Below are positions 1 through 15,158 of a stretch of 64,000 nucleotides of DNA, one piece after another. Both the position numbers and the translations under genes were made by a program. Every line of letters begins with the position of its first letter. Positions within the stretch are counted from its first letter, which is position 1. The DNA is from Gemmatimonadota bacterium (GTDB lineage: Bacteria > Gemmatimonadota > Gemmatimonadetes > JACCXV01 > JAHWKZ01), in contig DATKCO010000021.1 in the NCBI GenBank assembly GCA_035513155.1, forward strand, positions 3,559-67,558, written 5' to 3'. The notes beneath the pieces are model-generated. The model was not told the DNA's origin, did not search any database, and saw only the letters and a program-made list of their open reading frames with translations.

Positions 1-2361
1 CGCCTGCGCCATCCGCATTCCGAGCTCCATCCCCGCGGGACGGCCCCCGATCGCCTCCACCATCGTCCCCAGCGCCCGCTCGAGCCCCCCCGTCACGACC
101 CGCTGGCGCGCGAGCCGCGCCGCCCGCTCGCCGGGGTCGTCGAGCCGCCCCTCGCGCTCGGCCAGCTCGCGCTGCCGCCCGGCCAGGAAGAGGGACTCCG
201 CCCCCGCCCGGTCGAGCGCCGCCCCGTGGGAACGCGTCTGCCCGCCCCCGGACTCCTCGCCGCGCGTCTGCCCGGCCGCCTCGCTCATCTCGGCGGCCGC
301 GTCCCGCTGCGCCGCGGCCGCCTCCGCGGGGTCGCCGGCCTCGATCTCGCCCGCCACCCGCTCCAGCGCGTCCTCGATTCCCGCCCGGGCGGACTCGGAC
401 AACCGCTCGGCCATCTCCCGGGCGGCGTCGGACAGCGCGGCCTGCCGCTCCGCCACCCTGCTCTCCAGCTCCTCGGACCGGGTTCCCGCCGTCTCGTCGG
501 CCAGCGCCGACTGGGCGTCGGCCAGGCTCTCGAGCGAGTCGGCGGCCAGCACCCGCTCGAGCGACCGCTCGATCCGCGCCAGCCGCTCCGCGATCGCCTC
601 GAGGACCGCGGCCCGTGCCTCCGCCGAGTCGGCAGGGTCGGAGGGCCGGCCCCGAGGCGGGTCCAGCTCGGCCGTCGCGACGCCCTCGAGCTGTCGCCGG
701 TATCCCTCCAGCTGCGCCGCGAGGTCGGGATCGAGACCGGGATCGGCCAGCGTCCGGTCGAGGGCCCGGGCCAGCGAGTCGGCGGCCGAGGCGAGGCGGC
801 GGTCCAGCTCCGCCGCCGCCTCCGACGCCTCTGGCCGGCCGGGCGCCTCACGCTCTTCGGAGGCCCGCCGGGCGGCCTCGAGCGCGGAGCGCATCTCCTC
901 CCCCGCCGCCGCCCGCTCCTCCGCCGCGGCCGCCCTCAGCGCGGCCTCGCTCGCGAGCACGACGGAGCGCCAGGGAGTCGCGACGGCCGCGCCGCTCGTG
1001 GGCCGCGCGACGACCCGGTAGCGAACCGTCTCGCCCGGCATCCGGCCGGCCGCCAGCGGCACCGGCGCGCTCACGATCGTGTCCCGGGCGCCCCCCACCG
1101 CCGCCAGGCGTCCCCCGCGCCCGTCCCCGGTCTCCCAGGACAGGGACGCGAGGCCTTCCGGAGCCCCCGCCCTCGCCTCGAGCCAGATCGCTTCCGCCGC
1201 CAGGCGGGCCGGATCGTCGACCGGGCGCAGGATCTCGACGAATGCGGCTCCCGGCACGGCCACCGCGAACGTCGGACCCTCGAGGACCTGCCCACCGCTC
1301 CCCCGGGCCAGGAGCCGGGCCGGTCCCGGCGCGAGATCGCTCACCGGGCCGCGGAACGAGCCCCCCGCGACCGCCAGCGGGACCTCGCGGCCGGCCGCGT
1401 CGATCACGCTCGCCGCCGCCAGCGGGCCGCTCGCCTCCCCCCGGATCTCGAGCCCCTCCCCCGCAGTCGTCGTGCGCCCGGCGAGGGGCTGCCAGGCCTC
1501 GCCGCCCGCACGGGCCTCGGCCCGCACCAGCGCCAGGGGCGGACGCACGGCGAGCGCGTACTCCGGGCTCGCCGCCGTCCCGTAGCGGAGACGGTAGCGC
1601 CGCTCGACGACCAGGTCCGGCCACCTCCATGTCCCCTCCCGCGCGGTGCCCAGCGTGTCGGCTTGCCACCCCCGGGAGCCCTCCCGCCACTCGAGCACGA
1701 GCGGGCCTTCCGCGACCGGGCCGGTGTAGGCGACCGCTCCGTCCACGTCCGCACCGTATTCGATCTCGATCTCGCCGGGGACCACCCGCCACAAGCCCGC
1801 GTCCTCCCGCCAGAGGGTGGTCGGATCGAGCACCGCGCGGACGACGCGGCGCGCGGCGGCCGGCTCGGCGAGACCGGCGAGGAGGGCGAGCGTGGCCAGG
1901 ACGAGCGCGCTCCTCCGGGCCAGCCCCAGCCGGTGGAGCGCGAGGTCGGAGAGGGCGCGGTCGAGCCGGTCGGCGCCGCGCCGCGCGAGCCACGCCCGCC
2001 CGCCGCTGACCCGCGCGCCCGGCAGGCCCCCATCCGCCCGCTCGAGAGACGCGACGACGCGGCCGCGGGCCTGGGGAAAGAGCCGCTCCAGCCGTGCGGC
2101 CACCGCGCGCGCTCCCGGAGCGGGTGCGGGCCAGCGCCGCCAGGCCCACGCGAGGCCTCCCCCCGCCAGCAGGGCCGCGGTCGCGTACCCCGCGGCGCGG
2201 GCGAGACCGGCGCCCGGCATGAGCGATTCCCACACGAGGACCCCAAACGCGAACGCCGCGCAGATCGCCGCCACCGTCCAGAGCATCCCGAGACGGCGGC
2301 GTCGCCTCTCCGCGGCGCCCAGCGTCCGAAGCTCCCGCTCCGGATCCAAACGGGTCGTCAT
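1..2361 (-). CDS. Large membrane-anchored hypothetical protein, at least 787 aa in the window. Its 3' end lies beyond the window start, and it is not in the ORF track because it has no stop codon within the window. The N-terminus has one to two TM helices (MLWTVAAICAAFAFGVLVW and AGYATAALLAGGGLAW). A beta-rich central region follows, then a long Ala/Glu/Arg/Leu-rich helical, coiled-coil-like C-terminal half. It may be DUF4175-like; that is an inference.
   Basis: I translated the minus frame that shares codon boundaries with plus ORF 226..2373. That plus frame contains no TTA/CTA/TCA codons from position 1 to 2373, so the minus frame is open over the whole span. The ATG is at 2359..2361 and shares one nucleotide with the upstream OMP stop (TGATG). 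The N-terminus reads MTTRLDPERELRTLGAAERRRRRLGMLWTVAAICAAFAFGVLVWESLMPGAG. The plus-frame product is Leu/Arg/Pro-rich with third codon positions mostly C, the in-phase antisense signature of a high-GC gene. Confidence 0.75.
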   Translation of the reverse strand, partial: MTTRLDPERELRTLGAAERRRRRLGMLWTVAAICAAFAFGVLVWESLMPGAGLARAAGYATAALLAGGGLAWAWRRWPAPAPGARAVAARLERLFPQARGRVVASLERADGGLPGARVSGGRAWLARRGADRLDRALSDLALHRLGLARRSALVLATLALLAGLAEPAAARRVVRAVLDPTTLWREDAGLWRVVPGEIEIEYGADVDGAVAYTGPVAEGPLVLEWREGSRGWQADTLGTAREGTWRWPDLVVERRYRLRYGTAASPEYALAVRPPLALVRAEARAGGEAWQPLAGRTTTAGEGLEIRGEASGPLAAASVIDAAGREVPLAVAGGSFRGPVSDLAPGPARLLARGSGGQVLEGPTFAVAVPGAAFVEILRPVDDPARLAAEAIWLEARAGAPEGLASLSWETGDGRGGRLAAVGGARDTIVSAPVPLAAGRMPGETVRYRVVARPTSGAAVATPWRSVVLASEAALRAAAAEERAAAGEEMRSALEAARRASEEREAPGRPEASEAAAELDRRLASAADSLARALDRTLADPGLDPDLAAQLEGYRRQLEGVATAELDPPRGRPSDPADSAEARAAVLEAIAERLARIERSLERVLAADSLESLADAQSALADETAGTRSEELESRVAERQAALSDAAREMAERLSESARAGIEDALERVAGEIEAGDPAEAAAAQRDAAAEMSEAAGQTRGEESGGGQTRSHGAALDRAGAESLFLAGRQRELAEREGRLDDPGERAARLARQRVVTGGLERALGTMVEAIGGRPAGMELGMRMAQA

Positions 2362-3515
2362 CAGGGTCGGTAGTTCATTCCTACCGCATAGATGTTCTTG
2401 GTGTAGAAATCGTTCAGAGTGATCGACTCGTTGCGATAGCGGCCGTAGCGGAGCTCGAGCGAGTAGTCGGGAGTCACGTCCTTGACGAGGCGGAGCAGCA
2501 GCACGTTGTTCTCGGTCTCCCCCGTATCGAGCGAGCCGGCCTGCGTGCTCGGGACGGGCTCGTTGAAGTCCCGCAGCTCGACCTGACCGTAGAGCTGGAC
2601 GAGCATCCCCCACGGGAGGCGCCGCAGCAGCTGCATCCCCAGGTTGTGGCTCACGTAGCTGAAGCCGAACGAGTTCGACTGGTTGAGACGGAAGCTGTAC
2701 TCCCCCTGCACCGAGACCGGGCCGAGCCAGGTCACGACCGTTCCCAACTCGTGCAGGTGGTCCTCCTGCCGGTCGCGCGTGATGCCGCGGATGATCGCGG
2801 TCGGGTCGTCGCCCGCCTCCAGCTTTCCGCGACCCGGATAGCGGATCCGATCGTAGGAGTAATCCCACGTCGCGGTCAGGTCGGTCCCGAACTCCTTGGT
2901 GATCGACGCGTACGCCCCGACCAGATGATTGCCGAAGTGGGCGTTGAGGTTCTCGAAGTCGGTGTCCGAGTAGCGCGCCCCGACCTCGATCCGCGCGACC
3001 TCGTCCTCACCCACCGGCTGCAGGTTCATCAGCCCGCTCACCGACCCGTTCATGCGGGTGAAGCCGTCCTCGTTGATGAAGAAGAAGCCGTCCATCCAGG
3101 CCCGGTTCTTCAACCCCACCGCCGCGCCCATCGCGAACCGGTCCGACAGTCGGCGCTGATAGCCCAGGGTGCCCTCGTTGACGAACTGGCTCGTGACGTC
3201 CGGCTCGTTGAAGCCGAAGTGGCGCTTGAGACCCCCCTGGTACGAGAGCGACACCCGCTGCTCCCCGGACGCGCCCCAGCGCAGGTCCCCGCGGTACGCC
3301 AAGCGTGCCACCTGGGCACGGACCGGATCGCTGATCCGGTCGGCCACGTTGTCGTCGATCTCGTACGTCAGGCGCACGTCGTGGTGATACGCCCAGGGCG
3401 ATCGCTCGAGAGTCTGACCGCGCAGGCCCGACGCGAGACAGGCGGTCAGGATGGCCAGCAGGATCAGCCCGCCGTGAGCCGGCCGTACCGACCGGACATA
3501 GCCTGGGGTTTCCAT
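2361..3515 (-). CDS. Outer-membrane beta-barrel protein, family not recognised, with signal peptide METPGYVRSVRPAHGGLILLAILTACLASG.
   Basis: The ORF track lists 2361..3536. The internal Met (METPG...) is preferred because a GGGAGG ribosome-binding site lies about 9 nt upstream. The sequence has the alternating amphipathic beta-strand pattern and is rich in Y/F/W/G/N/D/S/T. It ends NIYAVGMNYRP. Confidence 0.6.
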   Translation of the reverse strand: METPGYVRSVRPAHGGLILLAILTACLASGLRGQTLERSPWAYHHDVRLTYEIDDNVADRISDPVRAQVARLAYRGDLRWGASGEQRVSLSYQGGLKRHFGFNEPDVTSQFVNEGTLGYQRRLSDRFAMGAAVGLKNRAWMDGFFFINEDGFTRMNGSVSGLMNLQPVGEDEVARIEVGARYSDTDFENLNAHFGNHLVGAYASITKEFGTDLTATWDYSYDRIRYPGRGKLEAGDDPTAIIRGITRDRQEDHLHELGTVVTWLGPVSVQGEYSFRLNQSNSFGFSYVSHNLGMQLLRRLPWGMLVQLYGQVELRDFNEPVPSTQAGSLDTGETENNVLLLRLVKDVTPDYSLELRYGRYRNESITLNDFYTKNIYAVGMNYRP

Positions 3516-3540
3516 CGGATCGTTCCTCCCGCGCATGACG

Positions 3541-4440
3541 TTAATGATAAAACTCCCTCAGCCGCCCCGCGAACACCTCGGCCTTCCTCGAGTACTCGAG
3601 GCGCCGGTCTCGCAGATCGATCAGGCGTCGCTGGAGATCGCGGACCCTCTCGTCCGGGTCGTTGAACACCGCGACCCCCCGGCCCCCGGGGGTGTTGCTC
3701 TCCAGGATGGCGTCGAACACGCTCTCGGCCTGGATGCTCTGCTGGTCTCCCCACAGCGCGATGTCGTCCTTCAGGCGCTTGAACTCCTCCTGGTCCCGCT
3801 GTTTGCGGTTCAGCGCCTCGATCTGCTCCCGGATCACCGCGATCCGCGCGTCGATCTTGTCGACCGCGTCGCGGGCGATCGCCTCCTTGACCCGCAGCTG
3901 GCTGGGGCCGTCGGTCGGATCCAGCACCAGGTCGGGCAGGAACAGGTCGTCCTGCGCCTCTTCGATCTGGGGCACGAGCGCCTCCCGCGCCGCGACGTAC
4001 TGCCGCAGGGTCTCGGTCAGCCGGTTGAGCTCCCCCGTGTTCCCGGTTGTCTTCGGCAGCCGCTCGATCCGCTGGTTCGTCTCCGCGATCGCCTGGTTGT
4101 AGGCGTTGAACAGCTGGGTCTTCAGGTCCCGCATCTGCTCGTACAGGGTGCGCAGATCGCGCGCCACCCGGATCAGCTGGTCGCCCGTCTCGCGGATCCG
4201 GTTCGAGACGCTCTCGAACTGGGCGCTGCCGGCCGCCGTGCGGCGCTTGGCCTGGGAAAGGGAGTCGCCGCGGGCCTCGAGCGCCCGCTGGCGCGCCTCC
4301 AGGCGCGCGATCTCCGGCTCGCGCTGCGCGACGAGGCGGCGCAGCTCGACGATCCCGGGGCCCTGCGCGGCCGACTCGCCCGCGCCCGCCAGCAGCGCCA
4401 GCGCCACGCCCAGGAACAGGAGGCCGTGACGCCTAGCCAC
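3541..4440 (-). CDS. Secreted all-helical coiled-coil protein, 299 aa, with signal peptide MARRHGLLFLGVALALLAGAGESAAQ. Function unknown; it may be a periplasmic adaptor or stress-type protein.
   Basis: The ORF track protein shows heptad-like Leu/Arg/Glu/Gln periodicity throughout. Its stop lies 4 nt from the OMP ATG, and its start overlaps the stop of the response regulator by 8 nt. Confidence 0.6.
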   Translation of the reverse strand: MARRHGLLFLGVALALLAGAGESAAQGPGIVELRRLVAQREPEIARLEARQRALEARGDSLSQAKRRTAAGSAQFESVSNRIRETGDQLIRVARDLRTLYEQMRDLKTQLFNAYNQAIAETNQRIERLPKTTGNTGELNRLTETLRQYVAAREALVPQIEEAQDDLFLPDLVLDPTDGPSQLRVKEAIARDAVDKIDARIAVIREQIEALNRKQRDQEEFKRLKDDIALWGDQQSIQAESVFDAILESNTPGGRGVAVFNDPDERVRDLQRRLIDLRDRRLEYSRKAEVFAGRLREFYH

Positions 4441-5848
4441 CGCTCAGGCCGTACTTCTCGAGCTTGTAGTAGAGCGCGCTCGTCTTGATGCCCAGGAGCT
4501 CGGCGGTCTTCGTCTTGACGCCGCCGGCCTTCTCGAGCGCGTCCTCGATCATCGCGCGCTCGATGTGCTCGAGCGCGTTGTCGAGCGTGATCGCCCCCGC
4601 CGGCGGCACGCTCAGCGTGGCTACCGAGTTCGCCCGAGGGGTGCGTCGCTCGTCTATGGGGAACAGATGGGCCTCCAGCCGATCGGACTCGCACAGCACG
4701 ATGGCCCGCTCGATCATGTTCTCGAGCTCGCGGATGTTCCCGGGCCAGTCGTAGCGCATGAGCAGCTCCATCGCCTCGTCGGACACGCCAGCGACGGGCT
4801 TGGCCATCTCCGCGCCGATGGCGCCGATGAAGTGAGTGACCAGCGGCAGGATGTCTTCCTTGCGATCGCGCAGGGGAGGCACTTCGATGGGGATGATGTG
4901 CAACCGGTAGAACAGGTCCTCGCGGAACGCTCCCCGCTCGACCAGCGGCGTGAGATCCCGGTTCGTCGCGCTGATGATCCGCACGTCGACCGTGATCGTG
5001 CGCTCGCCACCGACCCTTTCGATCTCCTTCTCCTGGAGGACCCGCAGCAGCTTGACCTGGGTGGAGAGCGGGATGTCGGAGATCTCGTCCAGGAACAGCG
5101 TGCCCCTGTGCGCCAGCTCGAAGCGGCCCTTCCGCTCCCGGATCGCCCCCGTGAAGGCCCCCTTCTCGTGGCCGAACAGCTCGGACTCCAGCAGGCCCTC
5201 GGCCAGCGCCGAGCAGTTGACCTTGATGAACGGGGCGTCGCGCCGCGCACTCTCGCGATGGATGGCGCGCGCGATGAGCTCCTTCCCGGTCCCGCTCTCC
5301 CCGTAGACATAGACCGCCGAGGTGGCCTCGGCGACCTTGCGGATCGAATCGTAGATGTCGCGCATCGCGCCCGACCGGCCGACGATCTCGCCGAAGTGGT
5401 GCTCGACCTCCTCCCGGAGGTACTCCGCCTCCGCCTTGAACGCGTCGCGCTCCCGCTTGAGGTCGCGGGTGGCGAGCGCCTTGTCGACCTTGACCTTGAA
5501 CTCGCTCGGATCGAACGGCTTCGTGATGAAGTCCACCGCCCCCAGCTTCATGGCGTCGACCGCGATGTCGATCGTGCCGTAGGCGGTGATCAGCATCACC
5601 TCCGGATCTCCGGGAACCGGCTCGTCGCGGATCGCCTCCAGCAGCTGGAGGCCGTTCATGCCCTCCATCTTGAAGTCGGTGATGACCAGGTCCAGGGGCT
5701 CCTCGCGGCACTTCCGCAGGGCCGCGTCTCCGTCCTGGACGGCCTCCACCTCGTGTCCCGCGCGCTTCAGGACCTGCTCGATCCCCTCCCGCACCGTGGG
5801 GTTGTCCTCGACGACCAGGATGCGCGCCTTCCGTGTCGGCTCGCTCAT
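4433..5848 (-). CDS. Sigma54-dependent response regulator of the NtrC family, with REC, AAA+ sigma54-interaction and Fis-type HTH domains.
   Basis: It carries the receiver motifs (ILVVEDN...DLVITDFKMEG), Walker A GESGTGKE, the GAFTGA motif (EKGAFTGA), the arginine finger region, and the C-terminal HTH TKTAELLGIKTSALYYKLEKYGL. Confidence 0.93.
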   Translation of the reverse strand: MSEPTRKARILVVEDNPTVREGIEQVLKRAGHEVEAVQDGDAALRKCREEPLDLVITDFKMEGMNGLQLLEAIRDEPVPGDPEVMLITAYGTIDIAVDAMKLGAVDFITKPFDPSEFKVKVDKALATRDLKRERDAFKAEAEYLREEVEHHFGEIVGRSGAMRDIYDSIRKVAEATSAVYVYGESGTGKELIARAIHRESARRDAPFIKVNCSALAEGLLESELFGHEKGAFTGAIRERKGRFELAHRGTLFLDEISDIPLSTQVKLLRVLQEKEIERVGGERTITVDVRIISATNRDLTPLVERGAFREDLFYRLHIIPIEVPPLRDRKEDILPLVTHFIGAIGAEMAKPVAGVSDEAMELLMRYDWPGNIRELENMIERAIVLCESDRLEAHLFPIDERRTPRANSVATLSVPPAGAITLDNALEHIERAMIEDALEKAGGVKTKTAELLGIKTSALYYKLEKYGLSGG

Positions 5849-7350
5849 CCGCTGCTCCCCGCCACCGCCGTCTCCGACGGCCGGTAGGCGCTCGCCCCGG
5901 CGCTCACGGTCGGCAGCACGATGAAGAACACCGTCTTCTCACCCGGGACGCTCTCCACCCAGATCTCTCCGTCGTTCTCCTCGATGATCGAGCGCACGAT
6001 CGACAACCCGAGCCCCGCCCCGCTCCCCTTGGTGGTAAAGAACGGATCGAAGATCTGCTTCAGGTGGTCGGGGTGGATCCCCGCGCCGAAGTCCTTCACC
6101 ACGATCCGCGCCTTGCCCTGCGCCTCCTGCGCGAGGATCTCGACCCGCCCACCGGGCGACGAGGCCTGGACGGCGTTCTTCACCAGGTTGAGCAGCGCCC
6201 GCTTCACCTGCTCGACATCCGCGTACACCGCCAGCTCGCGGTCGGCCATCTCGACTTCGACCTCGACCCCGCGCTCGGTCGTGTCGCCGGAGAGCAGGAA
6301 CAGCACGTCGTCCACCACCTCGCGCAGCATGAACGGCTCGACGATCGCCTGCCGCGGCCGCGCGTAGATCAGGAACTCGTTGATGATCGTCTTCAGATGC
6401 TGGACCTCGCGGATGATCTTCTCGAGGTGGGAGCGCCGGCCGTCGGCTTCTTCCAGCTCGTCCCGCAGCAGCCCGGCGAAGATCTCGATGCCCCCGAGGG
6501 GGTTTCGGATCTCGTGCGCCACGCCGGCCAGCATCGTCCGCAGGTGCCGGTCCCGCCGCACGATACCCCGGCGCATGTTCTCGAGCGCGTTGCCCAGATA
6601 GCCGATCTCGTCCCGCGACTCGACCGCCACCGGCTCTCCGAGGTCGCCGCGCTCCATCCGCTCGGCCGACGAAACCAGCTTCCCCAGGGGATCCGAGAGC
6701 GTGCGGGCGAACACGACCCCGACCAGCACGGTCAGCGCCACCGCGATCAGCGTCAGCACGATCGTCGTCCGCCGGAAGTCGTGGAACACCTCGAGGAAGC
6801 CCAGCGAGAGATCGACGCCGAGCAGCGCGACGATCGCCTCCTGCGTCTGCGCCTCGTCGACGTAGCCGACCAGCGGCACCATCGCCGACTGGTAGACGTT
6901 CCCTTGCTCGTCGCTGAAGGGGTCGGTGATGACCGCCTCGCCGCGGAACGCTCGCTCGATCTCGCGCGCGTAGTTCTCGAGCCCCGGCGACACCGCTCCG
7001 ACGTCCATGCCGACCGTGTCGGTCGTGGCCAGGATCCGGTACCCCCGGTCGAACACGTACGCCTCGCGCACGCCCAGCCGGCGCTGCATCGCCTGGAGGT
7101 GGCCCTCCGCCAGCATCTGGGTCCGCGGCCCCACCTGGTTGACCAGCGCGGTCGCGGTCAGCGGATCGATGACCAGCGCGCCCGCCTCCGCGACCGCCAG
7201 CAGCCGGTTCTCGGTCTCTTCGCGGACGTGGGCGGTCGCCACCCGGTACCACACCATCGCGCTGGCGACCACGAGCACGGTCACCAGCAGGATGAACGTG
7301 ACGATGAGCTTCGTGCGGATCCGGTTTCGACGCTCTGTCATGGGAGCCAT
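5845..7350 (-). CDS. Sensor histidine kinase. Two TM helices flank a periplasmic sensor domain of about 150 aa, followed by HAMP, HisKA and HATPase_c domains.
   Basis: It has the H-box AHEIRNPLGGI, the N-box LLNLVKNAVQAS and G-boxes DFGAGI and GSGAGLGLSIV. TM segments are LIVTFILLVTVLVVASAMVWY and TTIVLTLIAVALTVLVGVVFA. Its stop overlaps the start of the response regulator. Confidence 0.9.
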   Translation of the reverse strand: MAPMTERRNRIRTKLIVTFILLVTVLVVASAMVWYRVATAHVREETENRLLAVAEAGALVIDPLTATALVNQVGPRTQMLAEGHLQAMQRRLGVREAYVFDRGYRILATTDTVGMDVGAVSPGLENYAREIERAFRGEAVITDPFSDEQGNVYQSAMVPLVGYVDEAQTQEAIVALLGVDLSLGFLEVFHDFRRTTIVLTLIAVALTVLVGVVFARTLSDPLGKLVSSAERMERGDLGEPVAVESRDEIGYLGNALENMRRGIVRRDRHLRTMLAGVAHEIRNPLGGIEIFAGLLRDELEEADGRRSHLEKIIREVQHLKTIINEFLIYARPRQAIVEPFMLREVVDDVLFLLSGDTTERGVEVEVEMADRELAVYADVEQVKRALLNLVKNAVQASSPGGRVEILAQEAQGKARIVVKDFGAGIHPDHLKQIFDPFFTTKGSGAGLGLSIVRSIIEENDGEIWVESVPGEKTVFFIVLPTVSAGASAYRPSETAVAGSSG

Positions 7351-7420
7351 CTGCCTGTCCTAAGCTACGTTAGCCCGGATACCCCGTCAAAACACTCGAA
7401 GGTCGGGCGAATTCCGGGCC

Positions 7421-8125
7421 TCAGTGGGTCAGCGCGTAGACGAAGACATTCGCCCCCATCTCCAGCGCCGCCCGGCGAACGACCGGCGGATCGCCGTGCA
7501 CGGCGGCGTCCTCCCAGCCGTCCCCGAGATCGGTGTTGAAGGAGTAGAAGACGACCAGCCGTCCGTCGTGATACACCCCGTAGCCCCGCGGGGAGCCGCC
7601 GGCGTGCTCGTGCACCTTCGGCAGCCCGGTCGGCAGCGGGAAGGCGGCACGGTAGATCGGATGGTCCGCTGGCAGCTCGACGAGCGGCTCCTCGGGGAAC
7701 ACCCGGGCGATCTCGCGTCGCAGCGTGGAGTCGATGCCGAAGTTGTCGTCGGCGTGGAGGAACCCGCCGCCCACGAGATATCCCCGCAGCGACCGCACCT
7801 CGGCTTCGGTGAGGCGGATGTCGCCGTGGCCGGTGAGATACAGGAGCGGGTAGCGCCCCAGGGACGGGTCGGTGGCGGACACGACCGCTTCACGGTCGGC
7901 GGTCGACAGCTCGAGCTCCTCGCGGACGAAAGCCAGCAGGTTGGGAAGCGAGGTGGGGTTCGCGTACCAGTCGCCCGGCGCGTACCGGAGGCGGGCGATC
8001 GTGAGCGGGGAATCCGGCGGCGTCGACGCCCGGCCTCCCAGACCCTGCCCCTCGGCCGGCATGGCGAGGAGGACGACCGCCAGCGCGGCCCCGCCCAGCC
8101 GACCGCCGTTCCCGAGTCTCCTCAT
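7421..8125 (-). CDS. Secreted protein of the DUF4159 family.
   Basis: The start is taken at internal Met 66 (MRRLGNGGRLGGAALAVVLLAMPAEG), which has a signal peptide and forms an ATGA overlap with the rsmI stop at 8122. The upstream part of the ORF is an Arg/Pro-rich artefact. Motifs YAPGDWYANPTSLPNL and LYLTGHGDIRLTEAE are characteristic. Confidence 0.7.
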   Translation of the reverse strand: MRRLGNGGRLGGAALAVVLLAMPAEGQGLGGRASTPPDSPLTIARLRYAPGDWYANPTSLPNLLAFVREELELSTADREAVVSATDPSLGRYPLLYLTGHGDIRLTEAEVRSLRGYLVGGGFLHADDNFGIDSTLRREIARVFPEEPLVELPADHPIYRAAFPLPTGLPKVHEHAGGSPRGYGVYHDGRLVVFYSFNTDLGDGWEDAAVHGDPPVVRRAALEMGANVFVYALTH

Positions 8126-8985
8126 TCCCCGGTCTCCTGCTGGACGGCCCGGTAGATCGCGTTCCGCTCCCCGGGATAGACGCAGGCCAGCACGTCGGTC
8201 AGGCCGCGGGCGGAGAGCTCCTGGCCGGTGCGGTCGCGGCGCAGCTCGCGCAGGGCGTCGCGCCACGGAAGCGCCCGGCCGGCCCGCGTCTCGCCCGTCC
8301 CGGCGAGGACGATCACGCACTCCCCCCGCAAACGACCCTCGCGGCCCGCGAGTTCAGCGGCGACCGATCGCGCGGTCCCGGTGACGAATTCCTCGTGGAC
8401 CTTGGTGAGCTCCCGCGCGAGGGACACCGCCCGCTCCGGCGCCAGCCCGGCGATCGCCGCCAGCGTCGCCGGCACGCGCGTCGGGGCCTCGTACACGACC
8501 ACGGTCTCCGACCGTTCCAGCGCCTCCGACCACCATGTCTCCCGCCCGCGTCGCGGGGCGAAGCCGAGGAAGGCGAACCGGTCCGTCGGCAGGCCGGACG
8601 CCGCGAGCGCGAGAAGCAGGGCGCTCGGTCCCGGCACCGGAACCACCTCGATCCCGGCCTCCCGGGCCGCCACCACGAGCCGGTACCCCGGGTCCTGGAT
8701 CGCGGGCATGCCGGCCTCGGACACGAGCGCGACGTCCGCGCCCGCCGTGAGGCGCGCGATCAGCCGGGGCGCGACCGCCCCGGCGTTGTGATCGTGGTAG
8801 GCGACCAGCTCCGGCGGCTCCATTTCCATCCACCCATAGAGCGCCAGGCAGGTGCGGGTGTCCTCGCACGCCACGATCCCGATCCGTCCGAGGACCTCCC
8901 GCGCGCGCGGCGTGAGATCGGCCCGGTTCCCGATCGGGGTGCCCACGAGCCACAGCGACCCGCGCGCCGCTCGACCGGAGTTCAT
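8122..8985 (-). CDS. rsmI: 16S rRNA (cytidine1402-2'-O)-methyltransferase
   Basis: Motifs: LWLVGTPIGN, DLTPRAREVL, IVACEDTR, LVSEAGMP.IQDPGYRLV. This is the tetrapyrrole-methylase fold typical of RsmI. Confidence 0.9.
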   Translation of the reverse strand: MNSGRAARGSLWLVGTPIGNRADLTPRAREVLGRIGIVACEDTRTCLALYGWMEMEPPELVAYHDHNAGAVAPRLIARLTAGADVALVSEAGMPAIQDPGYRLVVAAREAGIEVVPVPGPSALLLALAASGLPTDRFAFLGFAPRRGRETWWSEALERSETVVVYEAPTRVPATLAAIAGLAPERAVSLARELTKVHEEFVTGTARSVAAELAGREGRLRGECVIVLAGTGETRAGRALPWRDALRELRRDRTGQELSARGLTDVLACVYPGERNAIYRAVQQETGE

Positions 8986-10259
8986 TCGGGCTCGCGGCGG
9001 ACGTCGGCTCCCAGCGCGCGCAGGCGCCCGTCAATGCTCTCGTAGCCGCGGTCGATCTGGTGGACGTTCTGGATCACCGACTCGCCGCGCGCCGCGAGCG
9101 CGGCGATCAGGAGCGCCATCCCGGCCCGGATGTCGGGGCTCGAGATCGGCGCGCCCGCGAGCGCAGCCGGGCCGGTCACCACGACCCGATGCGGGTCGCA
9201 GAGGATGAGCCGCGCCCCCATCCGCTGCAGCTGATCGACGAAGAACAGGCGGCTCTCGAACATCTTCTCGTGGATCAGGATCATGCCGCTCGCCTGGGTC
9301 GCCACGACGACCATGATCGACGTCAGGTCCGCCGGGAACCCCGGCCAGGGCGCGTCGTCGAGCTTGGGCACGGCGCCGCCCGCGTCATCCACCACCGCCA
9401 GCCGCTGGTCGCCGGGGACGTGCACGTCGTCGCCGTCGGTCTCGATCCGCACGCCGAGCCGCTCGAACCCCAGCCGGATCATCGGCAGGTGCTCGACACC
9501 CGCTTGCCGGATCGTCAGATCGCCGCCCGTGACCGCGGCCAGCCCGACGAACGACCCGACCTCGATGTGGTCGGGGCCGATCCGGTGGATCGAGGGGCCG
9601 AGGGCCTCGACGCCGTCGATCTCGAGCAGGTTCGTGCCGATCCCGCGGATCGACGCGCCCATCCCCACCAGCATGCGGCAGAGCCCCTGGACGTGGGGCT
9701 CGGAGGCGGCGTTGGCGACGCGCGTGGTCCCGCGGGCACGCACCGCCGCCATCACCGCGTTCTCGGTCCCCATGACGCTCGCTTCGTCGAGGAAGATGTC
9801 GGTCCCCCGCAGGCCGTCCGGCGCGCGGATCACGTACTCCCGCTCCTCGACCGTGATCTCGGCGCCGAGGGCACGGAACGCGAGCAGGTGGGTGTCGACG
9901 CGGCGGCGCCCGATCCGGTCGCCTCCCGGAAGAGGCAGTCGGACCCTTCCCCGGCGCGCCAGCAGCGGCCCCGCGAGGAGGAACGACCCGCGGATCCTGC
10001 GCGCGGTGTCCAGGTCGGGGGCGGCGGCGCCGGCCGTGCCCACCGTCACCGCGTGGTCCTCCTGCTCGACCGTGCACCCGAGGTCCGCGAGCATCTCCAC
10101 CATCGTCCGCGTGTCCGCGATATCCGGGACGTTCTCGATCCGCACGGGCTCTTCCGTGAGCAGGGTGGCGGCGAGACACGGAAGCGCCTCGTTCTTGTTC
10201 CCGGCCGGCACCATCTCGCCCTGGATCGGCCGGCCCCCGACGACGACGAGCTGCTCCAT
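8982..10259 (-). CDS. murA: UDP-N-acetylglucosamine 1-carboxyvinyltransferase
   Basis: The true start is the internal MEQLVVVGGRPIQGEMVPAGNKNEALP; the ATG at 10257..10259 was confirmed in the sequence. The catalytic Cys region is present and there is full-length similarity. The start forms a TGATG junction with the prmC stop. Confidence 0.92.
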   Translation of the reverse strand: MEQLVVVGGRPIQGEMVPAGNKNEALPCLAATLLTEEPVRIENVPDIADTRTMVEMLADLGCTVEQEDHAVTVGTAGAAAPDLDTARRIRGSFLLAGPLLARRGRVRLPLPGGDRIGRRRVDTHLLAFRALGAEITVEEREYVIRAPDGLRGTDIFLDEASVMGTENAVMAAVRARGTTRVANAASEPHVQGLCRMLVGMGASIRGIGTNLLEIDGVEALGPSIHRIGPDHIEVGSFVGLAAVTGGDLTIRQAGVEHLPMIRLGFERLGVRIETDGDDVHVPGDQRLAVVDDAGGAVPKLDDAPWPGFPADLTSIMVVVATQASGMILIHEKMFESRLFFVDQLQRMGARLILCDPHRVVVTGPAALAGAPISSPDIRAGMALLIAALAARGESVIQNVHQIDRGYESIDGRLRALGADVRREPE

Positions 10260-11215
10260 CACCCCTCCTCCCCGGTGGCCAGGGCCAGAACCCCGCGTGG
10301 CAGGCCCGTGAAGTCGTGAAAGACCGTGAGGAACTCGAGCCCGGCTGTCCGCTCGATCAGGCTCGCCGCCTCCCGCTCCTGCGCGCTCCCGATCTCGAGG
10401 GCGAGCAGCCCGCCCGCCCGCAGGTGGGCCGGAGCCTCCACGACCAGCCGCGCGATCGCCTCGGTGCCCGCCGGCCCCGCGAACAGCGCTCCCGCCGGCT
10501 CCCACTCCACGACCTCCGCCGGCAGCGAGCCGCGCTCGGCCTCGGCCACGTACGGCGGGTTGCTGACGATCGCGTCGAAGCGCGCGCCCGGGCGGAAGCC
10601 CGCCAGCCCGTCCCCCGCGAGCCACGCGATCCGGTTCGCTCCCACGCGACCGGCGTTGCCCCGGGCGACCTCGAGCGCGGGACGGCTCGCGTCGCTCGCC
10701 ACGACGATCCGTACGCCCTCGAGCTCGAGCGCGAGCGCGCAGGCGATCGCGCCCGAGCCGGTTCCCAGATCGAGGATCCGCCACCCCGCCTCCGGGGCCC
10801 GGCCGCGCGCCGCTTCCGCTCGCGCCCAGTCCAGCACCTCGGCCACCAGGCGCTCGGTCTCCGGACGGGGAACGAGGACGCGGCGGTCGACCGCGAGCTC
10901 GAGCCCGCGGAATCCCGTCACGCCGGTGATGTACTGGACGGGCTCGCCGGCGAGCCGGCGCTTGACCCGGGAGCGATAGGAGTCGACCTCGTCGGAGCTG
11001 AGCGGCCGGTCGAAGCGGAGATAGAGATCGAGCCGCCGGCAGTCGAGCACGTCGGCGAGGAGGTGCTCCGCCGAGAGGCGCGGCTCGTTCACCCCGCGCT
11101 CCTCGAGGAATCCCGCCGTGGTGCGCAGGATCGACAGCACGGTCCAGTCGTCGCGCACCCCGCGGCGGACCTCAGCCCGTGCGGACCGCGAGGATCGCGT
11201 CCTCGTCGTCTTCAT
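10259..11215 (-). CDS. prmC: Release factor glutamine N5-methyltransferase of the HemK family. This is the canonical copy, with the NPPY motif.
   Basis: Motifs: PVQYITGVTGFRGLEL, VLVPRPETE, ILDLGTGSGAIA, IVSNPPYV. The exact start is uncertain; the track Met was used. Confidence 0.8.
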   Translation of the reverse strand: MKTTRTRSSRSARAEVRRGVRDDWTVLSILRTTAGFLEERGVNEPRLSAEHLLADVLDCRRLDLYLRFDRPLSSDEVDSYRSRVKRRLAGEPVQYITGVTGFRGLELAVDRRVLVPRPETERLVAEVLDWARAEAARGRAPEAGWRILDLGTGSGAIACALALELEGVRIVVASDASRPALEVARGNAGRVGANRIAWLAGDGLAGFRPGARFDAIVSNPPYVAEAERGSLPAEVVEWEPAGALFAGPAGTEAIARLVVEAPAHLRAGGLLALEIGSAQEREAASLIERTAGLEFLTVFHDFTGLPRGVLALATGEEG

Positions 11216-12104
11216 CGTCGGCCAGCACCCATTCGATCGTCAGCGGGTGGTCGGGGTCGCCGTTGACGTGCTCCTCGAGCATCTCGACCTGGTCGGAGTC
11301 GATCTGGCAGGCGAACAGGCCTCCGGGGCGGAGCCGTCGCCCCGCCGCGTCCGCCAGCCCGCGCAGCAGGTCGTCCCCGCTCGGCTCCCCGAAGAAGGTG
11401 TCCATCGGCTCCCACCGCAGGCTCTCCTCGCTGAGATAGATCTCGTCGCCCGGATTGAGGTACGGCGGGACCGCCACGATCATGTCGAATCGGGGCTCCG
11501 CGCGCGACCACTCGAGCCAGTCCCCGGCCAGCGGGACGACCCGCTTCTCCACCTTGTGCCGGCGCGCGTTGCGCCGCACCAGCTCCAGCGCCTGGAGCGA
11601 GACGTCGACCGCCCACACGCGCCGCGGCGCCAGCGGCCCGAGCGCCAGCGACACCGCGATCGCCCCGCAGCCGGCACCCAGCTCGGCGATCCGCCATCCC
11701 CCCTTCGGCCGCGGCCGCGACTCCGCCCACTCCTCGATCTCGTCGCACAACCGCTCGCTCTGGCTGCGCGGCACGAACACCCCGCTCTCCACCTCCATCA
11801 GCACGTCGCGGAAGTCGGACACGCCGACGATGTACTGATAGGGCTCGTGGGCCTCGCGCCGGGCCAGGAACTCGCGGAAGCGCACCTCGGCGGCCGCGTC
11901 GACGGGCTCCGTCCGGCGCTCGGTCAGCGCGTCGGGATCGTCCAGCGCACCCACGACCGCGCTCATGAGCCACAGGGCGCTGGTGTCGGGGAACTCGACC
12001 TCCCGCTCCTCCAACCTCCGCTCGGCCTCGTCGAGAAGCGAGCCGATCGTGATCCCGCCGGCCGTGGGGGCGGACCCGCGGCGGCTCGCGGCCCGAGGGC
12101 TCAT
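11172..12104 (-). CDS. Divergent HemK-family methyltransferase paralogue, with VPPY in place of NPPY. It is translationally coupled to prfA.
   Basis: The start is taken at [10 protein letters not shown], forming an ATGA overlap with the prfA stop at 12101..12104. Motifs: [49 protein letters not shown]. The rest of track ORF 11172..13196 is artefact. Confidence 0.75.
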
Positions 12105-13168
12105 CCGGCGATCCGCTCCGCCTGCTCTGCCATCGCCAGGGCATCGACCAGCTCGTCGAGATCCCCGCCCAGGACGTCGTCCAGCTGGTGGAGAGTGAGG
12201 TTCACGCGGTGATCGGTCACGCGGCTCTGGGGGAAGTTGTAGGTCCGGATCTTCGCGCTCCGGTCGCCGGACCCGACCTGGGCCCGGCGGGTCTCCGCCC
12301 GGGCCGCGTCCTGCTCGGCGATCTTGCGATCGAGCAGCCGGCTGCGGAGGACCTTCAGCGCCTTGGCCTTGTTCTTGAGCTGGCTCTTCTCGTCCTGGCA
12401 CTGGACGACGAGGCCCGTCGGCAGGTGGGTGACGCGCACGGCGGAGTCGGTCGTGTTGACGCTCTGCCCGCCCGGACCCGAGGAGCGGAAGACGTCGATC
12501 TTGAGGTCGCTGTCGTCGATCTCGACGTCGACCTCCTCGGCCTCGGGGAGGACCGCCACCGTGGCCGCCGAGGTATGGATCCGACCCTGCGACTCGGTCT
12601 CGGGTACCCGCTGCACCCGGTGGACCCCGCTCTCGTGCCGGAGCGTGCCGTACGCCTCCGCCCCGTGCACGATCGCGATCACCTCCCGGACCCCACCCGT
12701 GTCGGAGGGGGACAGATCGATCAGCTCCACGCTCCAGCCCCGCCGCTCGGCGTAGCGGGAGTACATGCGGAGCAGATCGCCGGCGAACAGCGCCGCTTCC
12801 TCGCCCCCCGTGCCGGCGCGGATCTCCAGGACCGCGTCCTTGTCGTCCAGGGGGTCGCGCGGGACCAGCATCCGCTTGAGCTCCGCTTCGAGCCGCTCGA
12901 CCTCCGCCTCGAGCTCCGCGATCTCCGCCCGCGCCAGCTCCTTGAGATCCGGATCGTCGGACTCCCTCATCATCTCGCGGTCCTCCGCCAGCCGGCGCCG
13001 AGCCGTTTCCCACGCCTGCGCGGTGGCGAGGATCGGCGCCCCCCGGGAGTGCTCCTTCCCCAGGTCGCGCAACCGTTCCGGATCGCGGCTCACCTCCGAG
13101 TCGGCCAGCAGCGCCTCGACGTCGGCCATGCGCGCGCGCAGGTCTTCGATGCGGGATTCCAGGTCCAT
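12101..13168 (-). CDS. prfA: Peptide chain release factor 1
   Basis: The start [10 protein letters not shown] was confirmed (cat at 13166..13168). The GGQ motif is present ([24 protein letters not shown]), as is the PxT-type recognition region. The upstream part of the track ORF is artefact. Confidence 0.95.
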
Positions 13169-13202
13169 CGTTCCGTTCGGCTCCGAGGGTGTCCACAAAC
13201 GC

Positions 13203-13239
13203 GAAGAGCAGGGGCGGCCCAGGGCTCCCTGCTCTCTTC
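13203..13239 (-). terminator. Imperfect GC-rich hairpin downstream of rpmE (gaagagcaggg / ccctgctc..ttc) followed by a weak U-tract. It is a possible attenuating terminator ahead of prfA.
   Basis: The inverted repeat was read directly. The U-tract is poor (GCGUUUGUGG on the mRNA). Confidence 0.3.
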
Positions 13240-13272
13240 GGTGTCTCGCGGCGCTGTTCGCCGCCGGTGTCC

Positions 13273-13551
13273 CTACGCCTCGACCGCGCTCTCCTCGCTC
13301 TCCTCTTCCGTGTCCGCCCCGGCCTCGTCGACGGCCTCGTCGGCGGTCCCCCCGGACAGCCCGTACTTCGCGCGGAACTTCTCCACCCGGCCGGCGGTGT
13401 CGATCAGCTTCTGACGCCCGGTGAAGAATGGATGGCAGCTCGAGCAGATCTCGACGTGGATCTCTTCGACGGTCGAGCGCGTCTCGATCGCGTTTCCACA
13501 CGCGCACACGATCCGCGCGGCTTTGTATTCGGGATGGATCCCGGGCTTCAT
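13273..13551 (-). CDS. rpmE: 50S ribosomal protein L31
   Basis: 92 aa: [48 protein letters not shown]. The ATG was confirmed at 13549..13551. A C-terminal acidic tail is present. Confidence 0.93.
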
Positions 13552-13598
13552 CGTCACGCTCCCCTGTATGCAGTCATGATTCTTCAAGACCGATGAAT

Positions 13599-15158
13599 TT
13601 ACCGGCGGCGGCCCGGGCCGACAAGGGAGCCCGCGACCAGCGCCAGCAGCGAGGCGACCGGCACCCACGGGCCCCAGCGCGTGTAGGGGGTCTCGATCCC
13701 GGGCATCGGCAGATCGGCGACCACGATCGCCGGGGCGTACAGCGCGGTGCGCCGCCGATAGCGGCCCAGCGGGTCGACCCAGCCCGAAATTCCGGTGTTG
13801 GCGGCCCGCAGAAACGAGACGCGGTTCTCCACCGACCGCAGCGCGAGGTGGCTGGCATGCTGGTAAGGGGCGGCCGTCCGCCCGAACCAGGCGTCGTTCG
13901 TGATGTTCAGCAGGAAGTCCGCACCGTTCCGGACGAGGGCCCGGGACGAGGCCGGGAACACCGACTCGTAGCAGATCAGCACGCCGAATCGCCAGCCGTC
14001 CACCGACCACGTGGTCCAGCCGGTGCCGGGCTCGAACTGCCCCGTCCAGGAGCTCAGTCGCTCGAAGAATCCGCTCAGCAGCCCGGGGAGGAAGGGCACC
14101 CGCTCGGCCACCGGCACCAGCCGGCGCTTCGCGTACCGTCCGGGCAGGATCGAGTCCCCCGCCACGAGGTAGGCGGCATTGTAGACGCGATAGTCTCCGG
14201 GGTCGGCGCCGCTCCTCCCGGCGAGCGTGTCGGCGTCATTGGTTCCGGTGAAGATCGGGGCCTCGATCCGCTTCGAGAGATCGGTCACCAGGCTGAAGGC
14301 GGCCGGGTCGTAGCGCAGGTATCCCGGGATCGCCGACTCCGGCCAGACGACGAGCTCGGGATCGTGCCGGGCCGCGCGCAGGGTGAGATCACCCAGCCGG
14401 CGGTACGTCTCGTCCACGAACGCCGGATCCCACTTCATCTCCTGCGGGACGTTGGGCTGGACCGCGGCCACGCGCAGCGTGGGCCAGGCGTCCACCCGGG
14501 CCTCGAGGTCCCGCAGCCGGAGCGCGCCGTACGCGGGGACGAGAGCCGCCAGCAGGACCGCCGCCACGGCCACCGTCGCGAGCCGGGTGCCGGCGGCCGG
14601 CCGCGCGAGCCGGTACAGGAGGGCCGAGAGGGCGGTCAGCACGAGGCCGAGGAGCCAGACCCCGCCCAGCTCGGCCCCCTGGATGAGCAGCGGATACGAC
14701 GCCAGGGCATCGCCCGCGACGGCCCAGGTGAAGCCCAGGTCCCCGAACGAGCGGAGCCACTCCACCGCCGTCCATGCCAGCGGGAACGAGACGACGAGCG
14801 GCACCCCGCGCCGCCGCGCGATCGCCACCCCGAGCGCGGTGAGACCCCCGTTGAAGGCCAGGACCAGGACCGACGCCACGTAGGCCGGCACGGCCATGAC
14901 GCTGAACCCCGTCAGCCCCGCGATCCAGTAGAGGAGCGCGCCGAAGAAGGCGAGCCCGAAGAGATACCCGCCGCCGAACGCCTCCCGGAGCCCGAGCGCG
15001 CCGGGACGGTCGAGAAAGGCGAAGAGCGGCCACAGGCCGACCAGCGCCAGCGGGAGCAGGTCGAGCGGCGGGAAGGCGAGCGCGAAGGCGACCCCGGCGG
15101 CCGGCGGCCACCACCACCACGCCGCCACGGGCCCGCGGCCCCGCGGGTGGGCCGTCAC
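13599..15158 (-). CDS. lnt: Apolipoprotein N-acyltransferase
   Basis: It has a multi-TM N-terminal domain plus a C-terminal CN-hydrolase domain ([19 protein letters not shown]). Confidence 0.9.

Follow-up and report, generated by a model that had tools for sequence, protein, structure and literature searches.

Do a sensor kinase, a sigma54-type response regulator and three envelope proteins encoded side by side in a Gemmatimonadota bacterium form one unit, and how might that unit be controlled? We addressed this question for a stretch of 64 kb (64,000 nucleotides), hereafter the window. On balance, we favor the view that a widespread, uncharacterized four-gene envelope module is represented here in its Gemmatimonadota form, with the mechanism and lineage-specific rewiring proposed below.

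Architecture of the gene cluster

A preliminary description of this DNA had listed five minus-strand genes spaced by 4 nt or less, three of them encoding envelope proteins of no nameable family. All five open reading frames were found in the window, and positions 1-9000 contain no terminator-like sites. The proposed spacing holds at two junctions, namely a 4-nt overlap (ATGA) between the genes for the kinase (HK) and the regulator (RR) and a 1-nt overlap (TGATGA) between those for the outer-membrane barrel (OMP) and a giant membrane protein. The genes for RR and a secreted helical protein (CC) overlap by 8 nt, and the CC/OMP junction depends on the start codon. The gap there is 4 nt only with the ATG at 3536, which we take as the start because homologues are 392-396 aa long; the start at 3515 given previously leaves 25 nt. 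Searches with Pfam, NCBIfam and PDB sequence profiles left CC, OMP and the giant without a match, as had been claimed, and the predicted compartments (signal-peptide helical protein, outer-membrane barrel, transmembrane-anchored giant) likewise agree with that description.

The assignment of a two-component pair with a bacterial enhancer-binding protein (bEBP) stands, with the Pfam domains and GAFTGA present. HK (5845..7350, minus strand, 501 aa) contains HAMP (7e-12), HisKA (3e-15) and HATPase_c (2e-25) domains, and hydropathy predicts transmembrane helices at residues 15-33 and 197-215 around a periplasmic sensor domain of ~160 aa, the organization of a classical transmembrane sensor histidine kinase. 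Residues 31-200, which hold the sensor domain, share homology with their counterparts in kinases from distant versions of the module (blastp 1e-14 for L033, 4e-11 for L039 and 2e-5 for L043), whereas the similarity to an unrelated kinase on L033 is not significant (blastp E 8.2). RR (4433..5848, minus strand) joins Response_reg (1e-30), Sigma54_activat (1e-71), AAA_lid_14 and HTH_8 (3e-15) domains, with the GAFTGA loop at residue 230, in the receiver, sigma54 AAA+ and Fis-type HTH layout of an NtrC-type regulator. Its recognition helix, LGIKTSALYYKLEKYG, is identical in 4 of 7 distant module regulators and carries 1-3 substitutions in the remaining ones; overall identity to these regulators is 50-57%, versus 44% for an unrelated bEBP. 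Every score of RR against NCBIfam equivalogs fell under the cut-off, the top one being AtoC at 474 versus 714 bits.

CC (3541..4440, minus strand, 299 aa) begins with a hydrophobic, signal-like segment, as judged by hydropathy, and is all-helical in an AF2 model (pLDDT 80.5). The longest helices of this model span ~55 residues, or roughly 8 nm as estimated from standard helix geometry, and the modeled helices of the monomer are shorter than the length of the periplasm. A conserved motif, LFLPDLVxDPTDGPSQLRVKEAIARDAVDKID, occupies the center of the protein. No Pfam family, the ZraP, CpxP and Spy types included, rises above noise for CC, and hhalign pairs it with a distant CC-like protein at 97.4%.

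OMP (2361..3536, minus strand) is a 391-aa precursor modeled by AF2 with 16 strands (pLDDT 82) and no periplasmic or other extra domain; structure comparison gave generic fold matches. All 150 representatives listed match its family profile at E<=1e-16. Weak matches among 70 members involve TIGR03016 (18/70, best 3e-7), BBP2_2 (12/70, best 5e-8), the Slam barrel SlipAM (8/70, best 1e-4) and EpsL (2/70), while the window OMP itself matches none of these in Pfam or NCBIfam searches. Such profile similarity suggests a distant relationship of the barrel family to TIGR03016, EpsL and BBP2_2.

A conserved core of four genes and a later addition

The order HK-RR-CC-barrel is kept in about 28 Gemmatimonadota MAG loci. 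Synteny within the phylum is weak evidence alone, since the entire neighborhood of 15-20 kb (prfA-prmC-murA-rsmI...meaB) is syntenic throughout the loci examined, as would be the case if the genes were functionally unlinked and their adjacency an inherited order in a slowly rearranging region. The argument for functional linkage rests instead on eight distant, lower-GC contexts, a small sample in which all flanks differ. The CC-like gene adjoins the barrel gene in 8 of 8, and homologues of all four proteins occur in six, with HK and RR directly upstream of the CC-barrel pair; at L040, where the contig ends, RR alone is complete. In two others (L034, L035), neither a kinase nor a regulator gene adjoins the pair. 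The recurrence of one four-gene order in six contexts whose flanks are unrelated and whose GC content is 38-64%, with shared cis-elements tying the module genes together, makes an absence of any functional link scarcely credible. The synteny on which the preliminary description depended is found both in Gemmatimonadota and in six unrelated contexts.

CC and barrel genes nearly always overlap or are separated by just a few nucleotides. Judged by homology and gene order, the four-gene module spans several bacterial phyla and is co-inherited across very different genomes. Recurrent neighbors of the distant modules include DUF3160 proteins, T9SS-tail proteins and a serpin.

The giant (1..2361, minus strand) is cut by the window edge after its N-terminal 787 aa. 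Its 21 full-length homologues measure 991-1034 aa, and roughly 210-240 codons of this ~1,000-aa protein therefore fall outside the window. Hydropathy places transmembrane segments near residues 25-43 and 152-170, the gene region has ~80% GC, and composition suggests that residues ~175-480 are beta-rich and the Ala/Glu/Arg-rich region helical. This architecture, with N-terminal transmembrane helices and a long low-complexity C-terminal part, is the only feature in which the giant resembles DUF4175/TIGR02302 membrane proteins. Neither the giant nor 20 full-length relatives show an AsmA, DUF490 or DUF4175 match at Pfam E<=1 or NCBIfam E<=0.1, and the giant has no PDB sequence-profile match.

The five-gene unit originally proposed shrinks to a conserved unit of four. 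The giant gene and two further genes beyond the window are absent from five Gemmatimonadota loci (L003/L004, L023, L027, L028 and L029) that keep the core four, and the giant gene was found in none of the eight distant versions. In the Gemmatimonadota loci without the giant, meaB lies directly 3' of the barrel gene; some relatives have 80-200 nt between the barrel and giant genes. On this distribution, the giant is a later, lineage-specific add-on, dispensable for the core module. Directly upstream of the cluster, a DUF4159 gene (7421..8320, minus strand; PF13709 2e-61) accompanies the giant in every giant-bearing locus for which upstream sequence exists, and L003, L023, L028 and L029 lack DUF4159, the giant, a 568-aa TPR-like protein and a 404-aa protein alike. 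The DUF4159 gene is possibly associated with the giant gene set, the association being one of co-occurrence only.

These data bear on the idea that all five products build one trans-envelope machine under two-component control, in which the giant would reach the barrel in a TamA/TamB- or AsmA-like manner and CC would serve as a periplasmic strut. As in such pairs, the gene for a 16-strand barrel overlaps the next gene, which encodes an inner-membrane-anchored protein of ~1,000 aa. The barrel nevertheless has no POTRA domain, the giant gives no AsmA, TamB or DUF490 signal, and many carriers have no giant at all; we consider such a machine decidedly unlikely.

Promoter elements of the distant and Gemmatimonadota modules

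In the distant versions, near-consensus -24/-12 sigma54 motifs precede the gene for HK, that for the CC-like protein or the one that follows the barrel gene. Fifteen motifs score at least 9/10, versus 4.6+/-2.2 expected, and 11 of them lie just 5' of one of these genes on the module strand. The palindrome TCAGA-WW-TCTGA occurs there in 8 exact copies in 112 kb, versus 0.065 expected. Each exact copy is either at most about 200 nt from a module sigma54 motif or directly 3' of the barrel gene (L040), and there are four tandem pairs; the two copies of a pair often lie 19-21 bp apart. We predict that this palindrome is probably the binding site of the regulator. The combination of palindrome and promoter is not exclusive to the module, as 120 metagenome matches come without a barrel or CC homologue and serpin homologues elsewhere carry it as well. 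Because the sigma54 motifs and the palindrome sit at module genes, the CC-barrel pair appears to be a local sigma54-dependent output in the distant versions.

The window lacks both elements, in keeping with the earlier remark that no sigma54-regulated promoter lies within the cluster. Its whole 64 kb contains no putative regulator palindrome, and no site in it matches the -24/-12 consensus with 0 or 1 mismatch; at 2 mismatches there are 21 matches, versus 36 expected. Across the Gemmatimonadota loci, sigma54 motifs were not found at module positions, and TTGACA-N17-TAnnTT precedes the kinase gene instead. The putative sigma70-like element of the window (7362..7390, minus strand) comprises TTGACG (7390-7385), 17 nt and TAGCTT (7367-7362). 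TTGAC(A), with TAnnTT (or AAnnTT) spaced 16-18 nt downstream of it, occupies the equivalent position in 22 of the 24 upstream regions aligned from Gemmatimonadota; L007 and L026 have a variant hexamer. As the window element fails a strict consensus scan, we infer its promoter function from this conservation. The annotated ATG follows after just ~12 nt, which implies either a very short leader or use of the second ATG. An exact palindrome survives just 5' of the -35 hexamer in L023, with degraded copies in L008 and L026; together with the conserved TTGACA-N17-TAnnTT, these remnants fit promoter replacement.

The position of these elements also bears on whether CC and the barrel are output at all. 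Five of the distant loci have their clearest palindrome and/or promoter unit 3' of the barrel gene, ahead of variable small lipoprotein or secreted-protein genes, an arrangement that would suit CC and the barrel as accessory sensors relaying outer-membrane state to the kinase (as in RcsF/OMP, NlpE-CpxA and QseG-QseE). The actual outputs would then be sigma54-driven genes 3' of the barrel gene or at other sites. Over large distances, the sensor domain of the kinase co-evolves with the CC-barrel pair, and the window pair is read with the kinase from the sigma70-like element, as expected for constitutive signaling components. Yet a sigma54 motif stands directly 5' of the CC-like gene in L034, L035, L037 and L040, which argues that the pair itself is a regulated output, and the first two of these retain the pair with no kinase or regulator beside it. 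We regard a mainly sensory role as rather unlikely; because ZraP and CpxP are output and modulator both, such a role is compatible with the explanation favored here.

Genes directly 3' of the barrel in the distant loci mostly encode small lipoproteins with their own sigma54 promoter motif, and these invite a reading in which the barrel exports a surface polymer or surface (lipo)proteins, like EpsL, the PEP-CTERM-associated barrels of TIGR03016 or Slam. CC would then be a periplasmic adaptor or chaperone, and the two-component system would switch on cargo and exporter together, much as PrsK/PrsR does for PEP-CTERM proteins. The weak family matches of the barrel point this way, as do the DUF3160, T9SS-tail and serpin proteins nearby and the elements shared with serpin homologues elsewhere. 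The PEP-CTERM regulon follows the same regulator and sigma54 logic, with an NtrC-type regulator, a kinase and sigma54 sites before secreted-protein genes (PMC1569441). In contrast, the window barrel matches none of these families and has 16 strands with no extra domain, unlike Slam; RR scores under the PrsR cut-off, the post-barrel gene of the window does not encode a lipoprotein, and no locus examined has adjacent exosortase, PEP-CTERM, glycosyltransferase or Wza/Wzc-type genes. An exporter is an unlikely explanation. A bolder form would make CC and the barrel an undescribed two-protein outer-membrane export or sorting device for secreted proteins and surface lipoproteins under sigma54 control. 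Gemmatimonadota, Latescibacterota and other low-GC contigs with T9SS-tail genes would share this device, and a dedicated kinase and bEBP would govern it via a TCAGA-WW-TCTGA enhancer; in Gemmatimonadota, a sigma70 promoter would have taken over its expression, and the giant, an inner-membrane-anchored periplasmic protein, would have been coupled to it. This is a long shot; if true, the cargo would be small lipoproteins, DUF3160 proteins, serpin-like proteins and large CarboxypepD_reg-repeat lipoproteins.

Proposed mechanism

In the mechanism that we favor, the kinase would sense a periplasmic or envelope cue and phosphorylate the regulator, which would bind the palindrome and activate sigma54 transcription of the CC-barrel pair and of neighboring secreted-protein or lipoprotein genes. 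CC would join the barrel in a complex of fixed stoichiometry and, like ZraP and CpxP, might exert feedback on the kinase. The window lineage would have lost the local sigma54 promoter and palindrome, with the operon now read from the conserved sigma70-like element, so that expression of the module there is probably constitutive or under different control. With GAFTGA and the recognition helix both retained, the regulator would have to work on targets at other genomic sites. The giant would have been added later in the lineage; two further genes lie 3' of it, and DUF4159 possibly goes with it.

Comparison with known systems

The highest NCBIfam scores for both HK and RR are those of AtoS and AtoC. 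Membership in AtoSC was rejected on scores of 209.5 versus 646 and 474.2 versus 714 bits and on the neighbors, which are DUF4159, rsmI, murA, prmC and prfA, with no ato genes. Slam proteins combine an N-terminal periplasmic TPR domain with a 14-strand DUF560 barrel. The window barrel, modeled with 16 strands and no periplasmic domain, was not assigned to them, and a weak SlipAM match is confined to the 8 of 70 relatives noted above.

PrsK/PrsR shares with the module the logic of a kinase and an NtrC-type regulator, and the barrel family may be remotely related to TIGR03016 (the PEP-CTERM-associated outer-membrane protein), EpsL and BBP2_2. Membership was rejected, as RR scores 395.1 versus a cut-off of 502.6 for TIGR02915 and the window barrel has no NCBIfam match. 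HK further differs from PrsK in its architecture of two transmembrane helices and HAMP, and the PrsK model is not among its best 25 NCBIfam matches.

The likeness to ZraPSR and CpxP raised in the preliminary description survives as an analogy of logic and fails as sequence membership in each feature tested: scores are 171.9 versus 479 bits for ZraS, 390.3 versus 760 for ZraR (NCBIfam cut-offs) and 100 versus 486 for CpxA. As in ZraPSR/CpxAR, the gene for a secreted all-helical periplasmic protein adjoins those for a membrane sensor kinase and an NtrC-type sigma54 regulator, and, as in ZraPSR, the low-GC relatives have a sigma54 promoter motif and an upstream palindrome before the helical-protein gene. 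Unlike ZraPSR, the module has an obligate outer-membrane barrel partner, and its window version is without a sigma54 promoter. Our best reading is that the module, a member of neither system, is likely a pair of periplasmic partner and outer-membrane channel controlled by an envelope signal, following a ZraPSR- and PrsKR-like logic.

Gene content of the window cluster

Window positions 1-7350 are taken up by five consecutive minus-strand genes, an arrangement that the preliminary description had proposed and that open reading frames and translation bear out. The kinase gene (5845-7350) encodes an external domain of ~160 aa bracketed by two hydrophobic helices, with HAMP, HisKA and HATPase_c on the C-terminal side (domain matches and hydropathy), and the regulator gene (4433-5848) encodes a full NtrC-type protein with REC, Sigma54_activat (1e-71), GAFTGA and HTH_8, so that the earlier assignment of a kinase with a GAFTGA-bearing enhancer-binding protein (bEBP) stands. 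The third gene (3541-4440) encodes CC, a protein with a signal-like N-terminus that is predicted to be all-helical (pLDDT 80.5). The fourth (2361-3536) encodes a predicted 16-stranded barrel (pLDDT 82) without any other domain, and the fifth (1-2361) the N-terminal 787 aa of a giant protein that reaches 991-1034 aa in relatives. Kinase and regulator genes overlap by 4 nt, regulator and CC genes by 8 nt, and barrel and giant genes by 1 nt; 4 nt separate the CC gene from the barrel gene if the latter starts at the ATG of 3536. No terminator-like site was found in the cluster. The tight gene spacing described earlier is confirmed, with one start codon (barrel, 3536) and one overlap length (8 nt) corrected.

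CC, the barrel and the giant matched no Pfam, NCBIfam or PDB sequence family, in agreement with the prior statement that none could be named, and PDB profile searches were empty or returned noise. Fold matches for the barrel are all generic 16-strand barrels (CdiB, FhaC, BamA, porins, DcaP, PelB, BcsC and PgaA), and those for CC are generic helical hairpins only (membrane-fusion-protein hairpins, prefoldin and PspA). Some members of the barrel family weakly match BBP2_2, TIGR03016 (PEP-CTERM-associated outer-membrane protein), EpsL and the Slam barrel, as might be expected of an EpsL-, PEP-CTERM- or Slam-like export role; the window barrel itself matches none of these four, and we consider such a role unlikely. 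Hydropathy places transmembrane segments at the N-terminus of the giant, the remainder of which we read as a beta-rich region plus a long helical part rich in Ala/Glu/Arg. GC content is ~80% over the giant gene (window 1-2000) versus 67-69% in the rest of the cluster because a low-complexity protein rich in Ala/Arg/Glu/Gly is encoded. Assignment of the giant to DUF4175/TIGR02302 or AsmA/TamB was rejected for want of matches, and no relatives were detectable outside the lineage.

Elsewhere in the window, a tandem pair of genes for PrmC-like methyltransferases (~10259-11215 and ~11172-12100, minus strand) lies between prfA on the upstream side and murA and rsmI on the downstream side; both were identified by comparison with the gene calls of the homologous loci L001 and L002.

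The conserved unit comprises four genes

Searches of metagenomes and MAGs returned 87 barrel, 91 CC and 21 giant homologues, and all those bearing an organism name are Gemmatimonadota. The gene order in the fetched loci is DUF4159, kinase, regulator, CC, barrel, giant, a 568-aa TPR-like gene, a 404-aa gene and meaB. In L003/L004, L027, L028, L029 and, independently, L023, meaB directly follows the barrel gene, and the giant gene and its two followers are absent, as is DUF4159; the CC homologue of L003 is divergent yet full-length (hhalign 99.3%). Because the core stays in these loci while the giant set is missing, the conserved unit consists of four genes and the giant is an accessory in part of the lineage. 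The five-gene unit proposed earlier is therefore not borne out, and a trans-envelope machine built from all five proteins is quite improbable. Expected synteny in relatives was found for the four genes, whose order is kept across Gemmatimonadota loci and in six of eight distant contexts.

DUF4159, encoded ahead of the kinase gene, and the giant/TPR-like/404-aa set behind the barrel gene occur together or not at all (L003, L023, L028 and L029 versus other Gemmatimonadota loci), with at least two independent cases of joint absence. They may constitute one accessory system flanking the core. A separate observation concerns a 1,542-aa call in L001 (11291-15919), which appears to be the giant gene fused by frameshift to the next TPR-like gene; the middle of its translation looks out of frame.

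The module extends beyond Gemmatimonadota

A barrel profile search returned 632 cluster representatives, with E-values below 1e-10 for 315. These representatives (>600) are metagenome clusters at 50% identity; among those listed, matches are mostly about 350 aa, and one cluster bears the name Latescibacterota. We compared eight distant contexts, whose flanks are unrelated and whose GC content is 38-64%. In all eight, an unannotated secreted helical protein of 333-446 aa adjoins the barrel gene, usually with overlap, and a HAMP kinase and sigma54 regulator lie directly upstream in six. CC and these helical proteins are homologues (hhalign 97.4%, E 9e-12), with a central D-P-x3-L-x2-K...D...KI motif inside the alignment. 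Window and distant kinases have a periplasmic sensor domain in common (1e-14 to 2e-5); an unrelated kinase encoded on the contig of a distant module does not share it. The distant regulators are 50-57% identical to that of the window, versus 44% for an unrelated bEBP, and the recognition helix LGIKTSALYYKLEKYG is near-identical between them. Homology of CC, sensor domain, regulator and recognition helix amid unrelated flanks rules out passive synteny. The proposal that these genes are neighbors without any functional link is contradicted by these contexts and is exceedingly improbable. The feature is thus real, conserved and more widely spread than the preliminary description could know.

Genes following the barrel in distant loci encode mostly small lipoproteins, and the downstream proteins are homologous neither to one another nor to the giant. 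Two further kinds of protein are encoded repeatedly within a few genes of distant modules, on the downstream side: large DUF3160 proteins (with FlgD_ig or Por_Secre_tail) and VIT-VWA proteins (L035 15122-17122, L039 10249-13059, L040 5012-7471; L039 13433-15853, L041 6844-7710). In the distant locus L034, rpoN (12966-14546) follows a CC-like/barrel pair at a distance of ~4 kb, and rpoN is itself preceded by the sigma54-like motif AGGCACAACCTTTGCA (12853-12868); no two-component system adjoins this pair.

Predicted sigma54 control in distant loci

Scanning the distant loci for TGGCAC-N5-TTGC at 9-10 of 10 positions yielded 15 motifs (4.6±2.2 expected), 11 of which lie on the module strand at three kinds of site, immediately 5' of the kinase gene (L033, L039), the CC-like gene (L034, L035, L037, L040) or the post-barrel gene (L033, L035, L039, L041, L043). 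The palindrome TCAGA-WW-TCTGA occurs in eight exact copies near these motifs, usually about 83-200 nt upstream, versus 0.065 expected, and nowhere else in the distant loci. In four cases the palindrome stands as a pair 19-21 bp apart, a spacing typical of bEBP enhancers. From the placement of promoters and palindromes, the regulator is predicted to drive the CC/barrel pair and its neighbor gene locally through sigma54 in these low-GC versions, and the whole operon is predicted to be autoregulated in two cases.

A single metagenome scan for the palindrome, N70-100 and a -24/-12 element returned 120 loci (L044-L163), none with a barrel or CC homologue, and did not reveal regulator targets in the window's organism. 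The gene sets recovered comprise a Gly/Ser/Cys-rich lipoprotein family, large CarboxypepD_reg-repeat lipoproteins and serpins. The first, a family of putative lipoproteins on wetland contigs of 57-63% GC, is the largest cluster and accounts for 50 of the 107 downstream ORFs. It has the palindrome 96-100 nt upstream of -24/-12 and resembles an expanded sigma54 regulon belonging to a different group of organisms. The CarboxypepD_reg lipoproteins (1,000-1,600 aa) are preceded by the palindrome 86-98 nt from a consensus -24/-12, in a conserved ComEC/fructose-1,6-bisphosphatase/adenosine deaminase context; this arrangement is also found ahead of serpin-like lipoproteins with homology to the module-adjacent serpin of the distant locus L040. 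Both types (L083, L089, L101, L105, L136, L141 and L158 on 64-69% GC contigs; L090, L115, L137) are possible regulon members.

A sigma70-like element in the window's lineage

Neither the -24/-12 site nor the palindrome was found at the corresponding Gemmatimonadota places (the palindrome excepted in L023) or anywhere in the 64-kb window, and the barrel-giant intergenic stretch of 13 Gemmatimonadota loci holds no sigma54-like site. The module is thus a four-gene unit without a sigma54 promoter in this lineage. Instead, TTGAC(A), 16-18 nt and TAnnTT stand just ahead of the kinase start in 22 of 24 aligned upstream regions (window: TTGACG, 7390-7385; TAGCTT, 7367-7362; minus strand). The window element fails a strict sigma70 consensus scan, so its putative promoter role is drawn from conservation. 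Only ~12 nt separate its -10-like hexamer from the kinase ATG (7350), so the leader would be very short unless a downstream start is used; a second in-frame ATG lies at 7341. Two other promoter candidates were rejected: TGGCATCGGGCTTGCC, inside the DUF4159 gene (L001, L007, L009, L026), is coding sequence not conserved in the window, and AGGCCCGGAATTCGCC, which directly follows the DUF4159 stop codon, shows no conservation and agrees at only 7 of 10 positions.

In L023, a Gemmatimonadota locus without DUF4159 and the giant, an exact palindrome (CTCAGAAATCTGA, 3926-3937) lies 8 nt ahead of the -35 hexamer of the sigma70-like element, and degraded copies precede the kinase gene in L008 and L026, closer relatives of the window. 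These copies fit replacement of an ancestral sigma54 promoter by a sigma70-like one. Since the window regulator retains GAFTGA and the recognition helix, sigma54 targets should exist elsewhere in the genome, which agrees with the earlier suggestion of a regulated promoter outside the cluster.

Discussion

We propose that the kinase senses a periplasmic or envelope cue and that the phosphorylated regulator would bind the palindrome, switching on sigma54 transcription of the co-translated helical protein and barrel and of adjacent secreted or lipoprotein genes. In the window variant, the pair would be co-expressed with kinase and regulator from the sigma70-like element. CC may also modulate the kinase; a mainly sensory role for the pair, compatible with our proposal, is rather unlikely.

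The building blocks are familiar: a two-component system, sigma54, a periplasmic helical protein and an outer-membrane barrel. No relevant literature was found for the CC, barrel and giant families or the palindrome. Cross-phylum comparison predicts a regulator-binding palindrome, its sigma54 promoters and candidate regulon members, and the upstream sequences would fit a clear case of sigma54-to-sigma70-like replacement inside one lineage. Should the pair be an envelope-stress device or surface-protein exporter, a gap would be filled for poorly studied, mostly uncultured phyla; if neither, the module is another conserved unit of unknown function.

On every membership criterion tested, the module fell outside ZraPSR, CpxA, AtoSC, PrsR/TIGR03016, Slam and TamB/DUF4175. 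We regard it as a sigma54 two-component-controlled envelope module made of uncharacterised protein families, which resembles ZraPSR and CpxP, as well as the PrsK/PrsR regulon of PEP-CTERM proteins (PMC1569441), in logic.
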